A DNA stretch of 64,000 bases from Candidatus Omnitrophota bacterium (GTDB lineage: Bacteria > Omnitrophota > Gorgyraeia > Zapsychrales > Zapsychraceae), in NCBI GenBank assembly GCA_020429915.1, contig JAGQKV010000001.1, forward strand, positions 28,971-92,970. The letters run 5' to 3'. Under the pieces are notes generated by a model. That model searched no databases and was not told the DNA's origin. It worked only from the letters and a program-made list of their open reading frames with translations. Shown here in pieces: positions 3,179 to 64,000 of this stretch; within the stretch, counting starts at the first letter, position 1, and each line of letters begins with the position of its first letter. A program made the position numbers and the translations under genes.

Positions 3179-4217
3179 CGCACTCATGCATGACGAGCGC
3201 CGGGGAACCGTCGACGCGCTGCCCAAGGCATTGTTATGGATGTTGTCCGTCGTATACGGACTGTTCATGCGCGGACGCAACTTGGCGTATGATCGCGGAT
3301 GGAAACCATCCTCCGATGTCGGAGTTCCGGTCATCAGCGTCGGAAATATCACGATGGGTGGGGCGGGCAAGACCCCGCTGGTTGTTTATATTGCGCGTGA
3401 AATCGTCCGGGCCGGCGGCAAACCCGTGGTCTTGCTGCGCGGTTACATGCAACAGGATCGTTCCGCCACGGACAGCGACGAGGCCGAAGTGATCCGCCGC
3501 AAGGTCCCGGGCATCGACGTTATCACCGGGGCCGACCGGGTGGGTCGTGCCCGCGATTATTTGAAGCAGGCGCAGTGTGACGTTTTTATCCTTGATGACG
3601 CATTTCAACACCGTAAAATTAAACGACGGCTGGATATCGTCGTCATCGACGCCCTGAATCCGTTCGGTAACGGGCAGGTTATCCCCCGCGGGATTCTGCG
3701 GGAACCGCTTGGCGGTTTGGGCCGAGCCGATCTCACCGTGGTGACCCGGACGGACCTAAATGCCGGGGCGCTGCCGGAGATTGAAAATACACTGAAGACG
3801 CGGGGCAGGCAATCTTCGTCCATTCACTCGGTGCACCGGGCGGAGGGGTTCGTCAATCTAAAGAGCGGCGAAAGACGGGACGTCAACGGTTTTGCCGGCA
3901 ATCCGGCCGTCGCTTTTTGCGGCTTGGGGAATCCGGACGGTTTTCGCCGTACGTTGGAAGCCCTGCGCGTGGATTTACGGCACTTCGTGGCTTTTGAGGA
4001 TCATCATCGCTATACGGCGGGAGATTTTCAAATGTTGACGTCGCAGGCGGCCGAGAGCGACACGAAAGTGCTATTAACGACGTTGAAGGATGCGGTCAAG
4101 TTGACGGCGATCAAGGGGTTGCCGCTCGACCGCATTTACTATCTTGATATCGGGATTGAGATAACCCATGGGAAAGACGAACTCACAGATCGAATCCATA
4201 GCGTACTACGCGGTTAG
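3162..4217 (+). CDS. lpxK: Tetraacyldisaccharide 4'-kinase LpxK
   Basis: ATG at 3162 overlaps the waaA stop by 17 nt. ISVGNITMGGAGKTP is the LpxK P-loop signature. About 351 aa. Confidence 0.85.
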   Translation: MRRYISALMHDERRGTVDALPKALLWMLSVVYGLFMRGRNLAYDRGWKPSSDVGVPVISVGNITMGGAGKTPLVVYIAREIVRAGGKPVVLLRGYMQQDRSATDSDEAEVIRRKVPGIDVITGADRVGRARDYLKQAQCDVFILDDAFQHRKIKRRLDIVVIDALNPFGNGQVIPRGILREPLGGLGRADLTVVTRTDLNAGALPEIENTLKTRGRQSSSIHSVHRAEGFVNLKSGERRDVNGFAGNPAVAFCGLGNPDGFRRTLEALRVDLRHFVAFEDHHRYTAGDFQMLTSQAAESDTKVLLTTLKDAVKLTAIKGLPLDRIYYLDIGIEITHGKDELTDRIHSVLRG

Positions 4218-58623: not shown

Positions 58624-59404
58624 TTTTCTCACCCGTATTATCGATTACAAACGGGAACTGATCGCGCAGAAAAGCGATTACTACCGCGCCCTGCGGGACA
58701 AGATCGAAGGGACGGACATCACCCCATATCGTGTCTTTCAGAAGGCGTTGGAAGGACGTGATCGGATCAGCCTCATTGCCGAGATTAAAAAGGCATCTCC
58801 GTCGCTGGGGGTAATCCGCGAGGAGTTCGACATCTTAAAGATCGCCAGCGCATACCGTGATCATCACGCCGCGGCCGTGTCCGTATTGACCGAAGACAAG
58901 TGGTTTCTCGGCAAGCCGGAATACATCCGCCGGGTCAGCGAGCATACCCGGCTGCCGATCCTGATGAAAGATTTCTTTATAGACGTCAACCAGGTGTTTG
59001 AGGCCTTCGCGCACGGGGCCAGCGCGATCCTGCTGATTGCGGCCGTGCTTACCGACGAGCGGATGGTCGAACTGAAGCGTGCCGCCGATGACCTCGATCT
59101 GGATTGCTTGGTCGAGATCCATGATGAAGCGGAGCTGCGGCGGGTGCTCAAACTGGATATGCCGATTATCGGTATCAACAACCGCAACCTGCACACCTTT
59201 GAAGTGACGCTCGATACCTGCCGCCGGCTGATACCGATGATTCCGGAGGACAGGATCGTCGTGGCTGAAAGCGGGATCAAGTCCCACAAAGATGTCCGCG
59301 AACTGCATCAGCTCGGCGCGCGGGCGGTCCTGATCGGGGAAACGTTTATGCGTGCGCCGGATATCGGAGCGAAGGTCGATGAATTGATGGGAGCAGAATC
59401 ATGA
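58613..59404 (+). CDS. trpC: Indole-3-glycerol phosphate synthase
   Basis: ISLIAEIKKASPSLG...ILLIAAVL...LVEIHDEAEL...IGINNRNL; TrpC motifs. Confidence 0.95.
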   Translation: MPNDFLTRIIDYKRELIAQKSDYYRALRDKIEGTDITPYRVFQKALEGRDRISLIAEIKKASPSLGVIREEFDILKIASAYRDHHAAAVSVLTEDKWFLGKPEYIRRVSEHTRLPILMKDFFIDVNQVFEAFAHGASAILLIAAVLTDERMVELKRAADDLDLDCLVEIHDEAELRRVLKLDMPIIGINNRNLHTFEVTLDTCRRLIPMIPEDRIVVAESGIKSHKDVRELHQLGARAVLIGETFMRAPDIGAKVDELMGAES

Positions 59405-60012
59405 TGAAGGTCAAGATTTGCGGCATCACGAACCACGAAGATGCCCAGAAGGCGATGTACTACGGCGCCTATGCCGCCGGATTTATTTTTCACAAGAAGA
59501 GTCCGCGCTATGTCAGTCCAAGCAAGGCGCGCAAACTGATTGAGGCCCTGCCGCCGTTTATCGTGCCGGTGGGCGTGTTCGTGGATTTGAAGGAAAAGGC
59601 GGTGCGCGATATCTGCCAGTTCACCCGGATCCGCACCGTGCAGTTTCACGGTGAGGAAACGCCGCTGTACTGCAAACGCTTCACCGACTACAAGATCATC
59701 AAGGCCTTCCGGGTCAACGACATGTTCGACCCGGTCGGCGTCCGCAAGTACAAGGTTGACGCCTATCTGTTCGACACCTACCAGGAGAACGTGATCGGAG
59801 GCACGGGCAAGACCTTTAATTGGGAAGTCCTCAAGGGCCACAAATTCGAGAAGCCCGTCATCCTCTCCGGCGGTCTCACCGCGGAGAATGTGGCCGATGC
59901 CATCGGCTCGGTCAACCCCTACGCGGTCGACGTCTCCAGCGGGGTGGAGAAAACCCCCGGAATCAAAGACCCCCGCAAGATCCGCGAATTCATGAAAGCC
60001 GCTTTGATCTAG
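59401..60012 (+). CDS. trpF: Phosphoribosylanthranilate isomerase
   Basis: MMKVKICGITNHEDAQ...VQFHGEETP...LSGGLTAENV; TrpF (PRAI) motifs. ATGA overlap with trpC. Confidence 0.9.
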   Translation: MMKVKICGITNHEDAQKAMYYGAYAAGFIFHKKSPRYVSPSKARKLIEALPPFIVPVGVFVDLKEKAVRDICQFTRIRTVQFHGEETPLYCKRFTDYKIIKAFRVNDMFDPVGVRKYKVDAYLFDTYQENVIGGTGKTFNWEVLKGHKFEKPVILSGGLTAENVADAIGSVNPYAVDVSSGVEKTPGIKDPRKIREFMKAALI

Positions 60013-60243
60013 CCGTCTCAGGTTCACCGTGGAGGAGGCGGGATCGATCCCACCGCGGGGGAGGTCCGGCCCTGATAGGTCCCCCGTCCGGCAAATAGTT
60101 ACCCGAAGGATGCCGCACCCGGGCCCAACCGGCGAAAATGTCCTATCCCGGACACACCCGGACATAAACCTGTGACTGGTTCAAAAGTCTTTATTTTACA
60201 ATGGATTATCTCTTTGTGGCTGGTCGGGGTGTGTGGTATCCTT

Positions 60244-60483
60244 AAAAAAGCCGATAAAGGTAAACCCGGGGAAACCCGGGGACTCCCGGATTTATGAGGT
60301 CCGGGACCAAGGGCATGCCTGGACTCTTGGACAAAACCACAGACCTAAGGTGTTTGCGACCATAAGGCCCGATCAGGCCGCCGGCCGGGGCAAAACAGAC
60401 TGGTAGAGAGGTCAAGGACGCGATGGTGGCTGGGTTGCCGAAGTGCGGTGAGGGAGACATCCTCGCCTTTATCGGCTATTTTT
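60244..60483 (+). other. Inverted-repeat-bounded ~240-nt GC-rich non-coding element: candidate structured RNA (riboswitch-like leader / sRNA) or MITE-like repeat; family undetermined
   Basis: AAAAAAGCCGATAAAGG (60244-60260) is the near-perfect reverse complement of CCTTTATCGGCTATTTTT (60466-60483), with a 12-bp perfect core. Inside sits a CCCGGG-GAAA-CCCGGG hairpin (60265-60280, GNRA-type loop) and several other GC-rich palindromes. No plausible ORF. U-rich tracts follow the 3' arm on both strands. Confidence 0.3.
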
Positions 60484-60539
60484 CCCCTTTTCGGGTGATT
60501 TCCCGGACCGGGGATTTCTTTTGGGCAGCCACATTTTAT

Positions 60540-60568
60540 TTGCCATCAGTATATATATCAATTATACT
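60540..60568 (+). promoter_or_regulatory. Sigma70-like promoter upstream of the giant ORF (-35 TTGCCA, 17-nt spacer, -10 TATACT) in an AT-rich tract
   Basis: TTGCCA at 60540-60545, spacer tcagtatatatatcaat (17 nt), TATACT at 60563-60568. The predicted transcript start is ~45 nt upstream of ATG 60618. No canonical SD; the leader contains CCCCUCC instead. Confidence 0.4.
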
Positions 60569-60617
60569 AATTTTATCCAATTCCCCTCCGTAACCGCTCT
60601 TAAATCCCCTTAAAACC

Positions 60618-63600
60618 ATGTTTAGAAAATTTCACCATCGGCGCGTCCGTGCATGCGCCGTTTATTTTATTTGGTTCCTGACCCTGAGTCTGGTGCCGGG
60701 TCCGGTTGCGGCTTCCGTGCCGGCCGATGAGCTGTTGCCTATGCCCGATCCCGGAGTCATGGTTCATCGCAGCACTTCGTACGCTCCGGCCATGATGAAC
60801 GGCGTAACGATTCATCCGGACAGGCCATTTCATTTTGATTTCGTCATCGACAAAGGAGAATCCGCCTCCCAAGATGAGTCATTCCGTAATGAGTCCATGC
60901 GGCTGGTCCGTTATTTCCTGGCCTCATTGACCGTCCCGGAACAGGACCTGTGGGTCAATCTCTCACCCGAGGAAGCGGACCGTACCATCCCGCCCGAATT
61001 CGCGCAGACCGACATGGGGCGCGACCTTCTTCTGCAGGACTATCTGCTAAAACAATTCACCGCCTCGTTGATGTACCCCGACAAGGAAACCGGACAGGAT
61101 TTCTGGCGGCGCGTGCACCGCCGTGCGCAGCAATTGTTCGGGACGACCGATGTGCCGGTCAACACCTTCAACAAGGTGTGGATCGTGCCGCAGGCCGCGG
61201 TCGTCTATCAAAACGGCAACTCGGCCTACGTGGTGGAAAGCACTTTAAAGGTCATGATGGAAGAGGACTATCAGGCTGCAGCCGCAGGGCAGCCTTCGCC
61301 GCCGTTGCCCGCGGACCGATTTGCCGATGAGATTGTTCGCGACGTGCTGATCCCGGAGATCGAATATGAAGTGAATCACGGCAAACAGTTTGCCCGCCTG
61401 CGGCAGATCTATCACACGCTGATCCTGGCGACGTGGTACAAGGAGAATATCCGCGCGTCGTTCGTTAACGAGATGTACTCCAACCGCAATAAAATCGCCG
61501 GGATCGATATCAGTGATAAGGACTCGAAGGAAGAGATTTACGCGGCTTACTTGGCCGCCTTCCGTCGCGGGGTCTACAACATGATCCGGGAGGATTACGA
61601 TCCCTACAGCCGGCGCATGATCCCCCGCAACTATTTCTCCGGCGGAATGAACATTAAACCCGTGGTGACCGTCACCGAATCGGCCGCCGCCCTGCCGCAG
61701 GGGGGTGATATGGCCCTGCTCGCGGTGAAACTGGATCCCATGAACAACGGCCGGATCGTGAATGTTGCCGAAGCCGCTGGGGACCAGGCACTGTTGAGCG
61801 AACAGCTCGATCCGGACGAACGCCGCCGCTACATCCGGTCCTTAATCAACCGGCGGGTAACGCGCCCGGAACCCGAGGAATTGGAGGGCATCGGTCCCCG
61901 GGAAATCGCCTTGGCCGCCCGCGGCCTCGCGGCACCGGTCAATCCCATCAGGGACTACACGCGGCTGCATGAATTGGCTCTTCCGCTGCTAAAGGCCAAG
62001 CTCAACGCGGTGCTGCGCCGGCATGCGGCTGAGCAACCGACATATGTGGTCCTGGCACGGGACGGTGATATGCTTTACGACATGCTCAGGCTCATGGACC
62101 CGAACGCGGCCGCCCAAGGCCGGATCAAGCTGATCAACATCAGCCTGCGGCAAAGCGAACGGATTGTCGATCCCGGAAGTCCGTTTTTTGACGCTGAACA
62201 GGCCGCTTCCATGCGGGCCTTTTTGCGCCAGGAAGGTGTGGGGACGGATGATTTGCAGTCGGGGAAATTTGTCTTTATCGACAGCGCCTACAAAGGGTCC
62301 ATCTTTGATACCATCCTGCGTCTCAATAATCTCAAGCCGGAGGATGTGTCCGGTCGCGTAACCGGTTACCTTGTGTTTCGTGACGATGCCCGGTCCGCTT
62401 ACACCGAAATGCCCGATATTTCCCCGAACGAAGCGATGGACGCGCTGACCGGTCTGGCCGCGGTCTTCGATCGCAGCCTGCAGGATCTGATGCCCGGATT
62501 CGTCAAAGAGCAATGGGCGTCGTTGAGTCTCCAGCGGCGGTTGAATTTTATGCTGGCTCTGTACTTGCAGGTGCAACCGAAGTTCCTGCGGAATGCCAAC
62601 GCGGTCGAGTATATCGATGGCCGCTGGTATTCCCTGAACAGGGCGTACGAAAGTTATTTTCAAGATTTGGAACCGCTGGACGAATTGACCTTTCATAATC
62701 CGCATCAGATGGACCCGGTTGCCGCGCTGCAGTTGCAGGCGATGACCGCCGGATATTTCCGTGAACAACAGCCGGGTGACGCTGCGATCCTGGTCCATGC
62801 AGGCGGGCGGATCAGTTTCGACGGTCCATATTTGGAGCCGGCGTTTCCGTTCTACGCGATGCGTCACGGCGAGACGCCGGCCAATGCCCGCAATATATTT
62901 CAAGGTTCCACCGACGATCCGAAGTTGAATTATCTGTCCCCGAAGGGTCTGGAAGACGCGCGGAAGGGAGCGCAAACCCTGTACGATCAGATCGCCCCGC
63001 TTCTCAGACGCGGGAAAAAGGTCCTGCTGCTGACCAGCGGGCTCACCCGGACCAAGCAAAGCCTGCAACCATTTCTGGACTTGATCGCCGCCAAGATTGC
63101 CGCCGGCGAGTTACCGGAGGACATCCGGTTGGAAGTCCGGGCGGATCCTGATCTGAATGAAATCAATTTCGGATCACTGAGCAATACCGATCCCGCGGAT
63201 TACACCGCTGAACAGGCGGCGTTTGAACAGGCGTACCGCCGCGGCAAGAACGCGACGCTGCCCGCGCCCGGGGGGGAAAGTTACCTGGATCTCATCGAAC
63301 GCGGCCTCAAATGGTTGGAGGGAATGAATAGCCGCTTTGCCGACGGGGAGACGGCGGTGGTGGTTTTCGGGCATGGAACGTTTCTCTCCACTTTGCAGAT
63401 CCTGACCGGCATCAAGGATATGGCTGATGCGACCGGATATATCGACTGGATCAGCAACCGGCCGCGTAACGGAGAGGTCGTGACTTTCCGGCCCGATCAG
63501 GCGATTCTGACGGAGGCACCCGGCAGGGACGGCGTGGAGACTCTCACTATCCCGCGCTTTGAAGGCACTTACGCGGAAATCGGGCGCTTCTTTGTGTACT

Positions 63601-64000
63601 ACCGTTCCGCCTTGCCGGCCGCGTTGAGCGGCGGGCAGACAGCTTCCCGCTGGGCGGATGAGGAAACGGTGGCAGCGGCCCGGTCGCGCGGCAAAGAAGT
63701 GATTTCACTGGCTGATTACTCCCGCTTTCGCAACCGGCCCGTGTATGAATCCGTCGAGGCGGATGAAGAGCCCGTCCGGGTTTGGGATCACACCCAAGCC
63801 GCTGTCGCGGCACTGCAGAGCGTTGATCTCAAGGGCAAGACGGTAGTGGAGCTGGGTGCCGGCGACGGGATTTTATCGGTGGTATCACTGCGTTTGGGGG
63901 CCCGCAAGGTCGTCGCCGTCGACGGCATGAACACCGCCGGATTGATTGAGATGAATATGGGTGAGAACGAGCCGGGCTTCGGCGACTACACCGGCAGGAC
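60618..64000 (+). CDS. Giant secreted multidomain protein, 3' end outside the window (>=1127 aa): signal peptide + ~700 aa unassigned region + PGAM-type histidine phosphatase domain + start of a PrmA-like SAM-dependent methyltransferase domain
   Basis: I translated the + strand in frame 3 from ATG 60618 codon by codon to nt 64000 and found no stop. The in-frame stop upstream is TAA 60591-93, so 60618 is the first possible start. N-terminus MFRKFHHRRVRACAVYFIWFLTLSLVPGPVAASVPA is a typical signal peptide. Residues ~745-960 (nt ~62850-63500): FYAMRHGETPANARN (RHGxT catalytic His), ...PGGESYLDLIERG..., ...VVVFGHGTFLSTL (second His), i.e. the histidine phosphatase clade-1 motif set. Residues ~1070-end (nt ~63825-64000): KTVVELGAGDGILSVVSLRLGARKVVAVDGMN, a class I MTase motif I/post-I most like PrmA. 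Not in the supplied ORF track because it has no stop inside the window. The minus-strand 61989..63068 and plus-strand 60950..61330 track ORFs are shadows of it. Confidence 0.8.
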   Translation, partial: MFRKFHHRRVRACAVYFIWFLTLSLVPGPVAASVPADELLPMPDPGVMVHRSTSYAPAMMNGVTIHPDRPFHFDFVIDKGESASQDESFRNESMRLVRYFLASLTVPEQDLWVNLSPEEADRTIPPEFAQTDMGRDLLLQDYLLKQFTASLMYPDKETGQDFWRRVHRRAQQLFGTTDVPVNTFNKVWIVPQAAVVYQNGNSAYVVESTLKVMMEEDYQAAAAGQPSPPLPADRFADEIVRDVLIPEIEYEVNHGKQFARLRQIYHTLILATWYKENIRASFVNEMYSNRNKIAGIDISDKDSKEEIYAAYLAAFRRGVYNMIREDYDPYSRRMIPRNYFSGGMNIKPVVTVTESAAALPQGGDMALLAVKLDPMNNGRIVNVAEAAGDQALLSEQLDPDERRRYIRSLINRRVTRPEPEELEGIGPREIALAARGLAAPVNPIRDYTRLHELALPLLKAKLNAVLRRHAAEQPTYVVLARDGDMLYDMLRLMDPNAAAQGRIKLINISLRQSERIVDPGSPFFDAEQAASMRAFLRQEGVGTDDLQSGKFVFIDSAYKGSIFDTILRLNNLKPEDVSGRVTGYLVFRDDARSAYTEMPDISPNEAMDALTGLAAVFDRSLQDLMPGFVKEQWASLSLQRRLNFMLALYLQVQPKFLRNANAVEYIDGRWYSLNRAYESYFQDLEPLDELTFHNPHQMDPVAALQLQAMTAGYFREQQPGDAAILVHAGGRISFDGPYLEPAFPFYAMRHGETPANARNIFQGSTDDPKLNYLSPKGLEDARKGAQTLYDQIAPLLRRGKKVLLLTSGLTRTKQSLQPFLDLIAAKIAAGELPEDIRLEVRADPDLNEINFGSLSNTDPADYTAEQAAFEQAYRRGKNATLPAPGGESYLDLIERGLKWLEGMNSRFADGETAVVVFGHGTFLSTLQILTGIKDMADATGYIDWISNRPRNGEVVTFRPDQAILTEAPGRDGVETLTIPRFEGTYAEIGRFFVYYRSALPAALSGGQTASRWADEETVAAARSRGKEVISLADYSRFRNRPVYESVEADEEPVRVWDHTQAAVAALQSVDLKGKTVVELGAGDGILSVVSLRLGARKVVAVDGMNTAGLIEMNMGENEPGFGDYTGR

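Follow-up and report, generated by a model that had tools for sequence, protein, structure and literature searches.

A gene behind trpF in an Omnitrophota genome belongs to a very large, unnamed family in which conserved terminal modules frame swappable enzyme cargo

What kind of protein is encoded by the long reading frame that follows trpF in an Omnitrophota genome and runs off the end of the available sequence? The stretch analysed here, which we call the window, comprises 64,000 nucleotides (nt) from a Candidatus Omnitrophota bacterium (contig JAGQKV010000001.1 of assembly GCA_020429915.1, positions 28,971 to 92,970 of the forward strand), and the open reading frame (ORF) begins at window position 60618 on the plus strand. 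A previous reading of the letters, the sequence-only reading, had described a secreted protein that unites a histidine phosphatase with a protein methyltransferase and that corresponds to no known system. We find that the gene is one cargo combination among thousands in a family specific to the Omnitrophota, and its membership and architecture are essentially certain. The family is very large and unnamed, and its members enclose swappable enzyme cargo between a signal peptide and head module on one side and a tail module on the other. Our preferred explanation, which we hold with somewhat better than even confidence, is a Sec-exported, riboswitch-gated carrier of enzymes in which the end modules would be shared handling parts and the cargo would be exchangeable.

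The gene is intact as far as the window extends. Frame 3 is open from the ATG at 60618 to position 64000 (plus strand), with 1127 sense codons and no stop on re-translation, in agreement with the sequence-only reading; the chance of 1127 open codons at this base composition is ~6e-18. The suggestion that the supplied ORF list drops frames lacking a stop in the window was also correct, since the list omits ORFs that run off the end of the window. An in-frame stop lies 24 nt 5' of the ATG, which is therefore the only possible start. A database protein of 1878 amino acids (aa), P0001, is 100% identical to the 1127-codon translation over the full translated length. It is named 'MAG: histidine phosphatase family protein [Candidatus Omnitrophica bacterium]' by NCBI and is found on contigs of many samples, in 41 blocks of the assembly collection. 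One such contig locus (L001) overlaps the window by 13,383 nt with no mismatch and thereby gave access to the other 751 codons and to the genes that follow. The ORF in the window thus encodes the first 1127 of 1878 residues, and extension past position 64000, which had been proposed as a check, recovered the full ORF and its neighbours.

In a related species the orthologous protein P0121 (2102 aa, locus L083) matches P0001 colinearly through every domain, and its gene has the same downstream neighbours as the window gene. Over the whole gene the nonsynonymous divergence (dN) is ~0.30 and the synonymous divergence (dS) ~1.34, a ratio of ~0.22 (Nei–Gojobori). The histidine phosphatase is the most constrained segment in this comparison (86% aa identity, dN 0.098); the N-terminal module is 72% and the middle domain 64% identical, and every part of the gene is under purifying selection. 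From the ratio and the colinear ortholog together we conclude that the gene is functional and no artefact. An antisense ORF of 359 aa (61989–63068, minus strand), wholly within the coding region, most likely does no more than shadow the GC-rich sense frame.

The protein starts with a Sec-type signal peptide (60618–60713, aa 1–32, plus strand), for which the basic n-region, hydrophobic core (hydropathy) and V-A-A/S cleavage site agree with the classical signal peptide described previously. The sequence LLPMPDPG, which carries the first of the family motifs, follows and leads into the N-terminal module (N-module; 60732–61772, aa ~39–385), recognized by the invariant motifs LPxPG, WVNLSP, NTFNKVWI and YFSGG. 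The first ~700 residues had been considered to contain no motif that could be placed; this does not hold, since residues 39–385 are the defining module of a huge family. Next comes a cargo domain of unassigned function (61773–62852, aa 386–745) with the motifs RPEPEEL.G, RDGDM.YD and D.AYKGS. It recurs in P0121 and P0007 and, at an internal position, in P0059. This middle domain has no Pfam match at E<=10, and a profile built from four sequences found nothing credible in the PDB (best 7shg, E=0.053). A search of a large database with it (61755–62852) returned no match at all, not even P0001, and this probable artefact of the word index makes the null result untrustworthy.

The histidine phosphatase (His_Phos_1, branch 1; 62853–63395, aa 746–926) scores 73.8 bits against PF00300, for which the gathering threshold is 21.7 bits (E=1.9e-20). 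In an alignment to the Schizosaccharomyces pombe phosphoglycerate mutase (PGM; 1FZT) the segments RHGE, T-R-T, NE..FG and GHG are all kept, and the catalytic residues of the R-H...R...E...H pattern, namely the histidine of RHG, the second arginine, the glutamate and the second histidine, are all in place. The complete motif set reported previously is thereby confirmed. The spacer between the two histidine motifs, which had been judged unusually long, is normal for the family: the alignment with 1FZT is end to end, and the Pfam match covers 181 residues for 153 model positions (~28 longer). The domain does not reach the equivalog cut-offs of NCBIfam (CobC, 46.8 versus 162.9 bits; GpmA and GpmB far below).

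Three S-adenosylmethionine (SAM) methyltransferase domains follow. The first (aa ~1059–1225) starts at 63792 and is interrupted by the end of the window at 64000 (plus strand); it carries motif I, VVELGAGDG, and motif II, VVAVD. The Pfam PrmA model matches with 32.4 bits (E=8.6e-8) at residues 1059–1103, covering only model positions 148–192 of 296, and for the prmA equivalog (NCBIfam TIGR00406) the score is 28.3 bits where 183 are required. We therefore rejected the assignment as a PrmA ortholog, since only the start of the Rossmann fold matches and the equivalog score is far below the cut-off; its sequence identifies it as a generic class I SAM methyltransferase. Of the previous proposal of a PrmA-like protein methyltransferase, the SAM-methyltransferase module stands and the orthology does not. 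Beyond the window lie the second (aa 1321–1410, Methyltransf_11/25) and third (aa 1594–1715, Methyltransf_31) domains, these Pfam models being matched above cut-off in full-length P0001, and then a C-terminal module (C-module; aa ~1790–1850, GGIDL...PVIINI.P..NLPLLLG) and an acidic tail. PADLOC reports similarity to the mad2 methyltransferase at residues 1069–1164. An origin in a defence system or phage was considered and rejected, since the matches are only to generic methyltransferase and phosphatase domains.

How common is this architecture? With the N-module as the only query, phmmer matched 7,935 clusters (50% identity) among 1.84 billion representative proteins at E<=0.001; at E<=1e-30 there were 6,164. 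The match is nearly always a single stretch and always at the N-terminus, in proteins of ~450 to 5,358 aa. When one genome per GTDB species was scanned, at least 581 matches were confirmed, with several family copies per genome and many loci in some genomes. All records among the matches listed are metagenome-assembled genomes of Omnitrophota, some of them deposited as "uncultured Planctomycetales" or "bacterium". Among the best 120 database matches (query included), the N-module is common to all 119 others with ~50% identity over residues ~10–375, and the C-module occupies the extreme C-terminus (the last ~60–100 residues) in 74 of the 120, including members of 4–5 thousand amino acids (kAA). 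Head-to-tail arrays of family genes occur in 15 of 80 loci, with up to four units in 11.6 kilobases (kb). Every unit is an ORF in its own right, beginning with a signal peptide and ending in a stop codon, and the intergenic gaps are short. Examples are found at L065 (412–11645) and at L081, L072, L037, L007 and L020. Fusion of tandem units into one giant polypeptide was rejected, as each junction examined between a C-module and the next N-module has a stop and a new signal peptide.

The position of the gene shows how the cargo varies. The last gene before the leader is trpF (PRAI; 59401–60012, plus strand), assigned from the ORF list and from the Pfam PRAI match on the identical contig, and the order prfA–prmC–aroA–trpG–trpD–trpC–trpF followed by a family gene is found in five lineages (window/L001, L008, L023, L032 and L072). 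The placement directly after trpF that had been pointed out previously is thus a recurrent one. The slot holds the unassigned domain, His_Phos and three methyltransferases in the window (L001; 1878 aa); a protein-kinase-like domain in L023 (at least 2691 aa); a domain resembling 2-hydroxyacid dehydrogenases with a complete phosphoglycerate kinase (PGK) and a complete enolase in L032 (at least 2695 aa); many WD40 propellers in L008 (at least 2759 aa); and a DRAT-like ADP-ribosyltransferase in L072 (974 aa), where a second family gene with LysM follows. When the proteins of the window, L023 and L032 are compared, the signal peptide and N-module alone are common to them, with 48–50% identity. Judged by these sequences, the slot has the pattern of a modular, cassette-exchanging family and not of a dedicated phosphatase/methyltransferase system.

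We regard as very improbable the idea of the sequence-only reading that this is a one-off secreted phosphatase/protein-methyltransferase system functionally tied to the trp genes. Both kinds of domain are real and intact, and their combination is kept in P0121. The combination is, however, one of many that stand behind the same N-module, and unrelated cargo occupies the same slot after trpF in other lineages. The gene also belongs to a five-gene block with a leader of its own and neighbours of a housekeeping type (zinc ribbon, M20 peptidase and PD40 propeller), and PrmA orthology fails. The checks of conservation and synteny that had been proposed bore fruit, in a colinear ortholog and in a slot that is filled in five lineages, and both speak for the preferred explanation, an exported carrier with exchangeable cargo.

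The family gene and four others split the trp operon between trpF and trpB–trpA (window 60013–64000, L001 9396–18910). The four encode a zinc-ribbon protein of 100 aa, an M20/M28 peptidase, a PD40 β-propeller protein and a 229-aa protein of unassigned function. In the 80 loci the recurrent neighbours of family genes are generic histidine-kinase/response-regulator hybrids (14 loci), methyltransferase/GT2 proteins, and TPR membrane proteins. The hybrid kinase/regulator genes lie mostly upstream and on the same strand as the family gene (the loci include L014, L015, L020, L026, L040, L049, L057, L060, L061, L067 and L078); this proximity may reflect the mere abundance of such genes.

What, then, is carried? 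Pfam scans, precomputed and re-run, place the start of complete enzymes right after the N-module, at residues ~400–460. Examples are PGK; phosphofructokinase (PFK) with iPGM; a complete GTP-dependent phosphoenolpyruvate carboxykinase (PEPCK; 354 bits); a four-domain phosphoglucomutase; and alanine dehydrogenase with guanylate kinase. Other members carry NUDIX, PP2C, HAD, GNAT, HATPase, receiver, helix–turn–helix (HTH), DnaJ and starch synthase domains, and WD40, enolase, kinase and ADP-ribosyltransferase domains are likewise among the cargo, as are GH26, LysM and VWA.

Such a repertoire raises the question of where these proteins reside. In 169 complete N-termini we found an h-region in 168, a net positive n-region in 153 and a small-x-small site in 159, with alanine at position −1 in 133 and glutamine at +1 in 118. 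Most members have no further segment of transmembrane grade by hydropathy. These features suggest that family members are cleaved Sec substrates, and the window protein is likely to be exported.

An alternative is a cell-resident scaffold, tethered to the membrane by an uncleaved anchor or by an N-module on the inner face of the envelope, that would hold the cargo in the cytoplasm of the producer and organize metabolism and signalling in an ultra-small cell. The cargo is overwhelmingly of cytoplasmic type (SAM methyltransferases, PGK, enolase, PEPCK, PFK, response regulators, HTH and DnaJ), which speaks for such a scaffold, and a 2026 preprint interprets similar Pfam content in long proteins with transmembrane segments only as inner-membrane-anchored cytoplasmic domains (10.64898/2026.06.07.730766). 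We nevertheless consider a scaffold unlikely. The basic n-region, the small-x-small site and the Ala −1/Gln +1 preference in most members are the signature of a cleaved Sec substrate, most members lack a second transmembrane segment that would return the cargo to the inside, and some of the cargo (LysM, GH26 and VWA) is typically extracytoplasmic.

The two modules that enclose the cargo have no recognizable relatives. Residues 1–745 of the window protein give no Pfam match at E<=10, and the N-module matches neither Pfam nor NCBIfam even at permissive thresholds; the same databases and the solved and viral folds searched contain no match to either end module. A profile of the family alignment found only low-complexity linkers among PDB sequences, for example the polyglutamine/proline region of huntingtin. 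This spurious match arises because many members have a Gln/Pro-rich low-complexity linker directly after the N-module (family alignment positions ~358–469). An AlphaFold2 model of residues 1–400, calculated from 45 sequences, has a predicted local distance difference test score (pLDDT) of 71.6 and a predicted template-modelling score (pTM) of 0.70; in it, the signal helix leads into a mixed fold made up of helices and long β-hairpins. Foldseek identified no relative of the N-module among viral models (BFVD), and none of a short full-length family member in the PDB. The profile and structure searches that had been suggested for this protein confirmed the phosphatase and methyltransferase and returned no relative of the N-module. 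In the model of the short member the C-module is predicted with pLDDT 75–84 and the surrounding cargo is disordered, which hints that the C-module packs against something. By position, conservation and analogy, the end modules would be common handles for export, anchoring or assembly.

The modules might instead form an active machine that is self-processing, pore-forming or lattice-forming. About 25 polar or charged residues of the N-module are invariant across the phylum, and a Gly-Gly pair is invariant at the border of each module: YFSGG at residues 339–343 (61632–61646) and GGIDL at P0001 residues ~1792–1796. These pairs could be double-glycine (C39-type) protease sites that free the cargo from both end modules, and C39 peptidase domains have been reported in giant Omnitrophota proteins. 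The confidently modelled C-module of the short member, amid its disorder, may dock on the N-module. The searches described above, however, revealed no similarity in fold or sequence to protease, pore or lattice proteins, and a non-exhaustive search of the loci examined gave no C39 gene in the neighbourhood. We judge an active machine to be rather improbable and retain the end modules as putative handles of an enzyme carrier.

Is the gene regulated? The long structured leader noted previously holds a probable c-di-GMP-I-type (cyclic di-GMP) aptamer at 60246–60446 (plus strand), in which the P2 hairpin is extended and 47 nt are inserted at 60284–60330. Between this and the start codon there is a terminator-like hairpin with a U-run (60500–60524, plus strand), a candidate expression platform. 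The region folds with z = −2.87. Rfam model RF01051 matches at 60249–60442 with 34.3 bits (E=5e-5), which is 0.7 bit short of the gathering threshold of 35 bits. The lower score is attributable to the insertion, which is the main difference of the window copy from its relatives and is located between GGGGAC and ACAAAACC (GCAAAACC in L023 and L032). Syntenic relatives in L032 (62.1 bits) and L023 (61.4 bits with the c-di-GMP-I-GGC model) are above threshold. The three aptamers, all placed after trpF and before a family gene, are near-identical in the core when aligned, and they share a P1b hairpin capped by a GAAA loop as well as a P2 that is ~65 nt longer. The terminator-like hairpin and U-run are likewise present after the aptamer and before the ORF in all three leaders, and in L023 and L032 a promoter-like site lies directly 5' of the aptamer.

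A covariance model constructed from the three aptamers recovers all of them and a compact fourth element in L057 (29.3 bits, E=1.8e-4), 64 nt upstream of another family gene. Riboswitch matches thus number four in 964 kb, all directly upstream of family genes. The syntenic leaders of L008 and L072 were searched and gave no riboswitch, and a match of a GEMM-I regular expression on the minus strand of L026, unconfirmed by Rfam, was discarded as a false positive. Downstream of the window aptamer, GCCUUUAUCGGC (60466–60477) is complementary to GCCGAUAAAGG (60250–60261), a conserved segment from the 5' part of the aptamer, and the expression platform may switch through this pairing; in L023, UUUAUCGGC forms the 3' half of the terminator-like stem. 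The leader is most likely a transcription-attenuating cyclic-dinucleotide riboswitch, to judge from these sequence features. In L032 the interval from trpF to the riboswitch contains a small ORF with a PilZ domain (3183–3590; Pfam E=4.1e-11), a second connection with c-di-GMP. West-Roberts et al. (10.1101/2023.11.21.568195) report that giant Omnitrophota genes have PilZ genes downstream.

Taken as a whole, the preferred explanation would operate as follows. Transcription of the window copy would be gated by the c-di-GMP-I-type riboswitch and terminator. The product would be translocated by the Sec machinery across the cytoplasmic membrane and its signal peptide then removed. The shared end modules would serve export, anchoring or assembly, with the cargo as the exchangeable working part, and the enzymes would act outside the cytoplasm of the producer, in the envelope, on the surface or, after delivery, within a host or prey. 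The last of these would fit best, because the cargo types need ATP or SAM; the destination itself we infer. The earlier idea of an exported effector or envelope factor is a plausible hypothesis.

Several considerations weigh against this explanation. The export, cleavage and location of the proteins are all predictions. To our knowledge, neither the periplasm nor the surroundings of a cell offer obvious substrates or cofactors to SAM methyltransferases, kinases or glycolytic enzymes. Predicted topology and cargo biochemistry are therefore in conflict, unless the proteins are delivered into another cell. The N-module has no recognizable fold relative, so that a handling role is argued from position, conservation and analogy, and the ~25 invariant polar residues mean that the module may be an enzyme in its own right. 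All-against-all clustering of 80 loci revealed no conserved partner, such as a transporter, protease or immunity protein, beside family genes. The riboswitch is present in only ~4 of ~98 family genes examined and is no general feature of the family. The window aptamer may be inactive, because it is below threshold and carries an insertion in the junction beside ligand-contacting nucleotides. Lastly, a promoter-like sequence (TTGCCA-17-TATACT, 60540–60568) is found downstream of the terminator-like hairpin and ahead of the start codon and, if active, would bypass the riboswitch.

A bolder version of the preferred explanation holds that the signal peptide and the N- and C-modules constitute a new delivery or display route, which would export whole enzymes of cytoplasmic type (glycolytic enzymes, kinases, phosphatases, methyltransferases and ADP-ribosyltransferases), possibly into a host or prey, with the cassettes swapped and some copies switched by c-di-GMP. 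We regard this as doubtful, and give the same limited credence to the proposal that delivery into another cell would reconcile topology with biochemistry. The Omnitrophota are widespread, uncultured and ultra-small bacteria for which predatory or parasitic lifestyles are suspected. Dependence on a host is likewise suspected (PMC10066038; 10.1101/2023.11.21.568195).

The gene was already annotated, as a histidine phosphatase family protein; what it reveals is a family that is large, unnamed and biologically puzzling. With thousands of members, which take up a sizeable share of small genomes, the family is likely to be central to Omnitrophota biology. If its members are exported, then the role of ATP- and SAM-dependent enzymes outside the cytoplasm needs to be explained, and delivery into another cell is the obvious answer; if a delivery route exists, the metabolism of host or prey might be rewired or harvested. 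Both modules are clear candidates for new domain-family definitions and offer a sequence handle with which to catalogue the Omnitrophota secretome. The trpF–riboswitch–family gene locus is a natural system in which to study cassette exchange and c-di-GMP control in a candidate phylum.

How does the family compare with systems already described? The nearest analogues in functional terms are the TpsA exoproteins of two-partner secretion and the polymorphic toxin/effector proteins (CdiA and FHA, for example), which are similarly long and exported, with a Sec signal, a conserved N-terminal module of 250–350 aa, variable recombining domains, many paralogs and replacement of cargo at a conserved locus. 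The N-module differs from TpsA in that it contains no TPS/Haemagg_act β-helix, being modelled as mixed α/β, and in that Pfam has no match to residues 1–745; no TpsB-like partner or transporter was found beside the window gene or in the loci examined. In TpsA proteins and polymorphic toxins, unlike here, the variable part is not enclosed by two conserved ends, and the cargo of the present family consists mostly of complete metabolic and signalling enzymes, not toxins. A polymorphic toxin system was rejected on the internal position of the variable part and on the downstream genes, which encode the zinc-ribbon protein, M20 peptidase and PD40 propeller and no immunity protein. Substrates of RTX/type I secretion have tandem GGxGxD nonapeptide repeats and no Sec signal. 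The present protein has a single GGID motif, no Pfam RTX match and a Sec signal, and this assignment was rejected too.

As a member of histidine phosphatase branch 1 (PhoE/CobC/dPGM-like) the domain at 62853–63395 passes the Pfam cut-off and aligns at its catalytic residues. It stands apart in that no equivalog is matched and in its embedding in a predicted exported multidomain protein of 1878 aa. The leader has in common with the c-di-GMP-I class (GEMM-I; RF01051/RF03167) the core sequence, the P1b with its GAAA loop, the P2 stem, the downstream terminator and the location in a 5' leader; the ~65-nt extension of P2 in three Omnitrophota copies, the 47-nt insertion in the window and the best match of one sibling to the GGC class set it apart.

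A further comparison is with the long and giant multi-enzyme proteins of Omnitrophota, frequently with signal peptides, that have been catalogued in two preprints (10.1101/2023.11.21.568195; 10.64898/2026.06.07.730766). The sequence-only reading had held that the window protein corresponds to no described system. As a unique phosphatase–methyltransferase system this cannot be upheld, since it is one cargo combination among thousands; the statement survives for the modules, which are absent from Pfam, NCBIfam and both preprints, and of which we found no description in a non-exhaustive search of the literature. The catalogued proteins share with the present family methyltransferase, HATPase, GNAT, HAD, starch synthase, PGM, receiver and NUDIX domains, and reported links to c-di-GMP, with PilZ genes adjacent to giant genes. 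They differ in the way they were defined, the preprints cataloguing very long proteins by Pfam content and topology. The N- and C-modules, a size range of 0.5–5 kAA, tandem arrays of separate ORFs, the swapping of cargo at a syntenic position and the riboswitch are what the present family adds to those catalogues.

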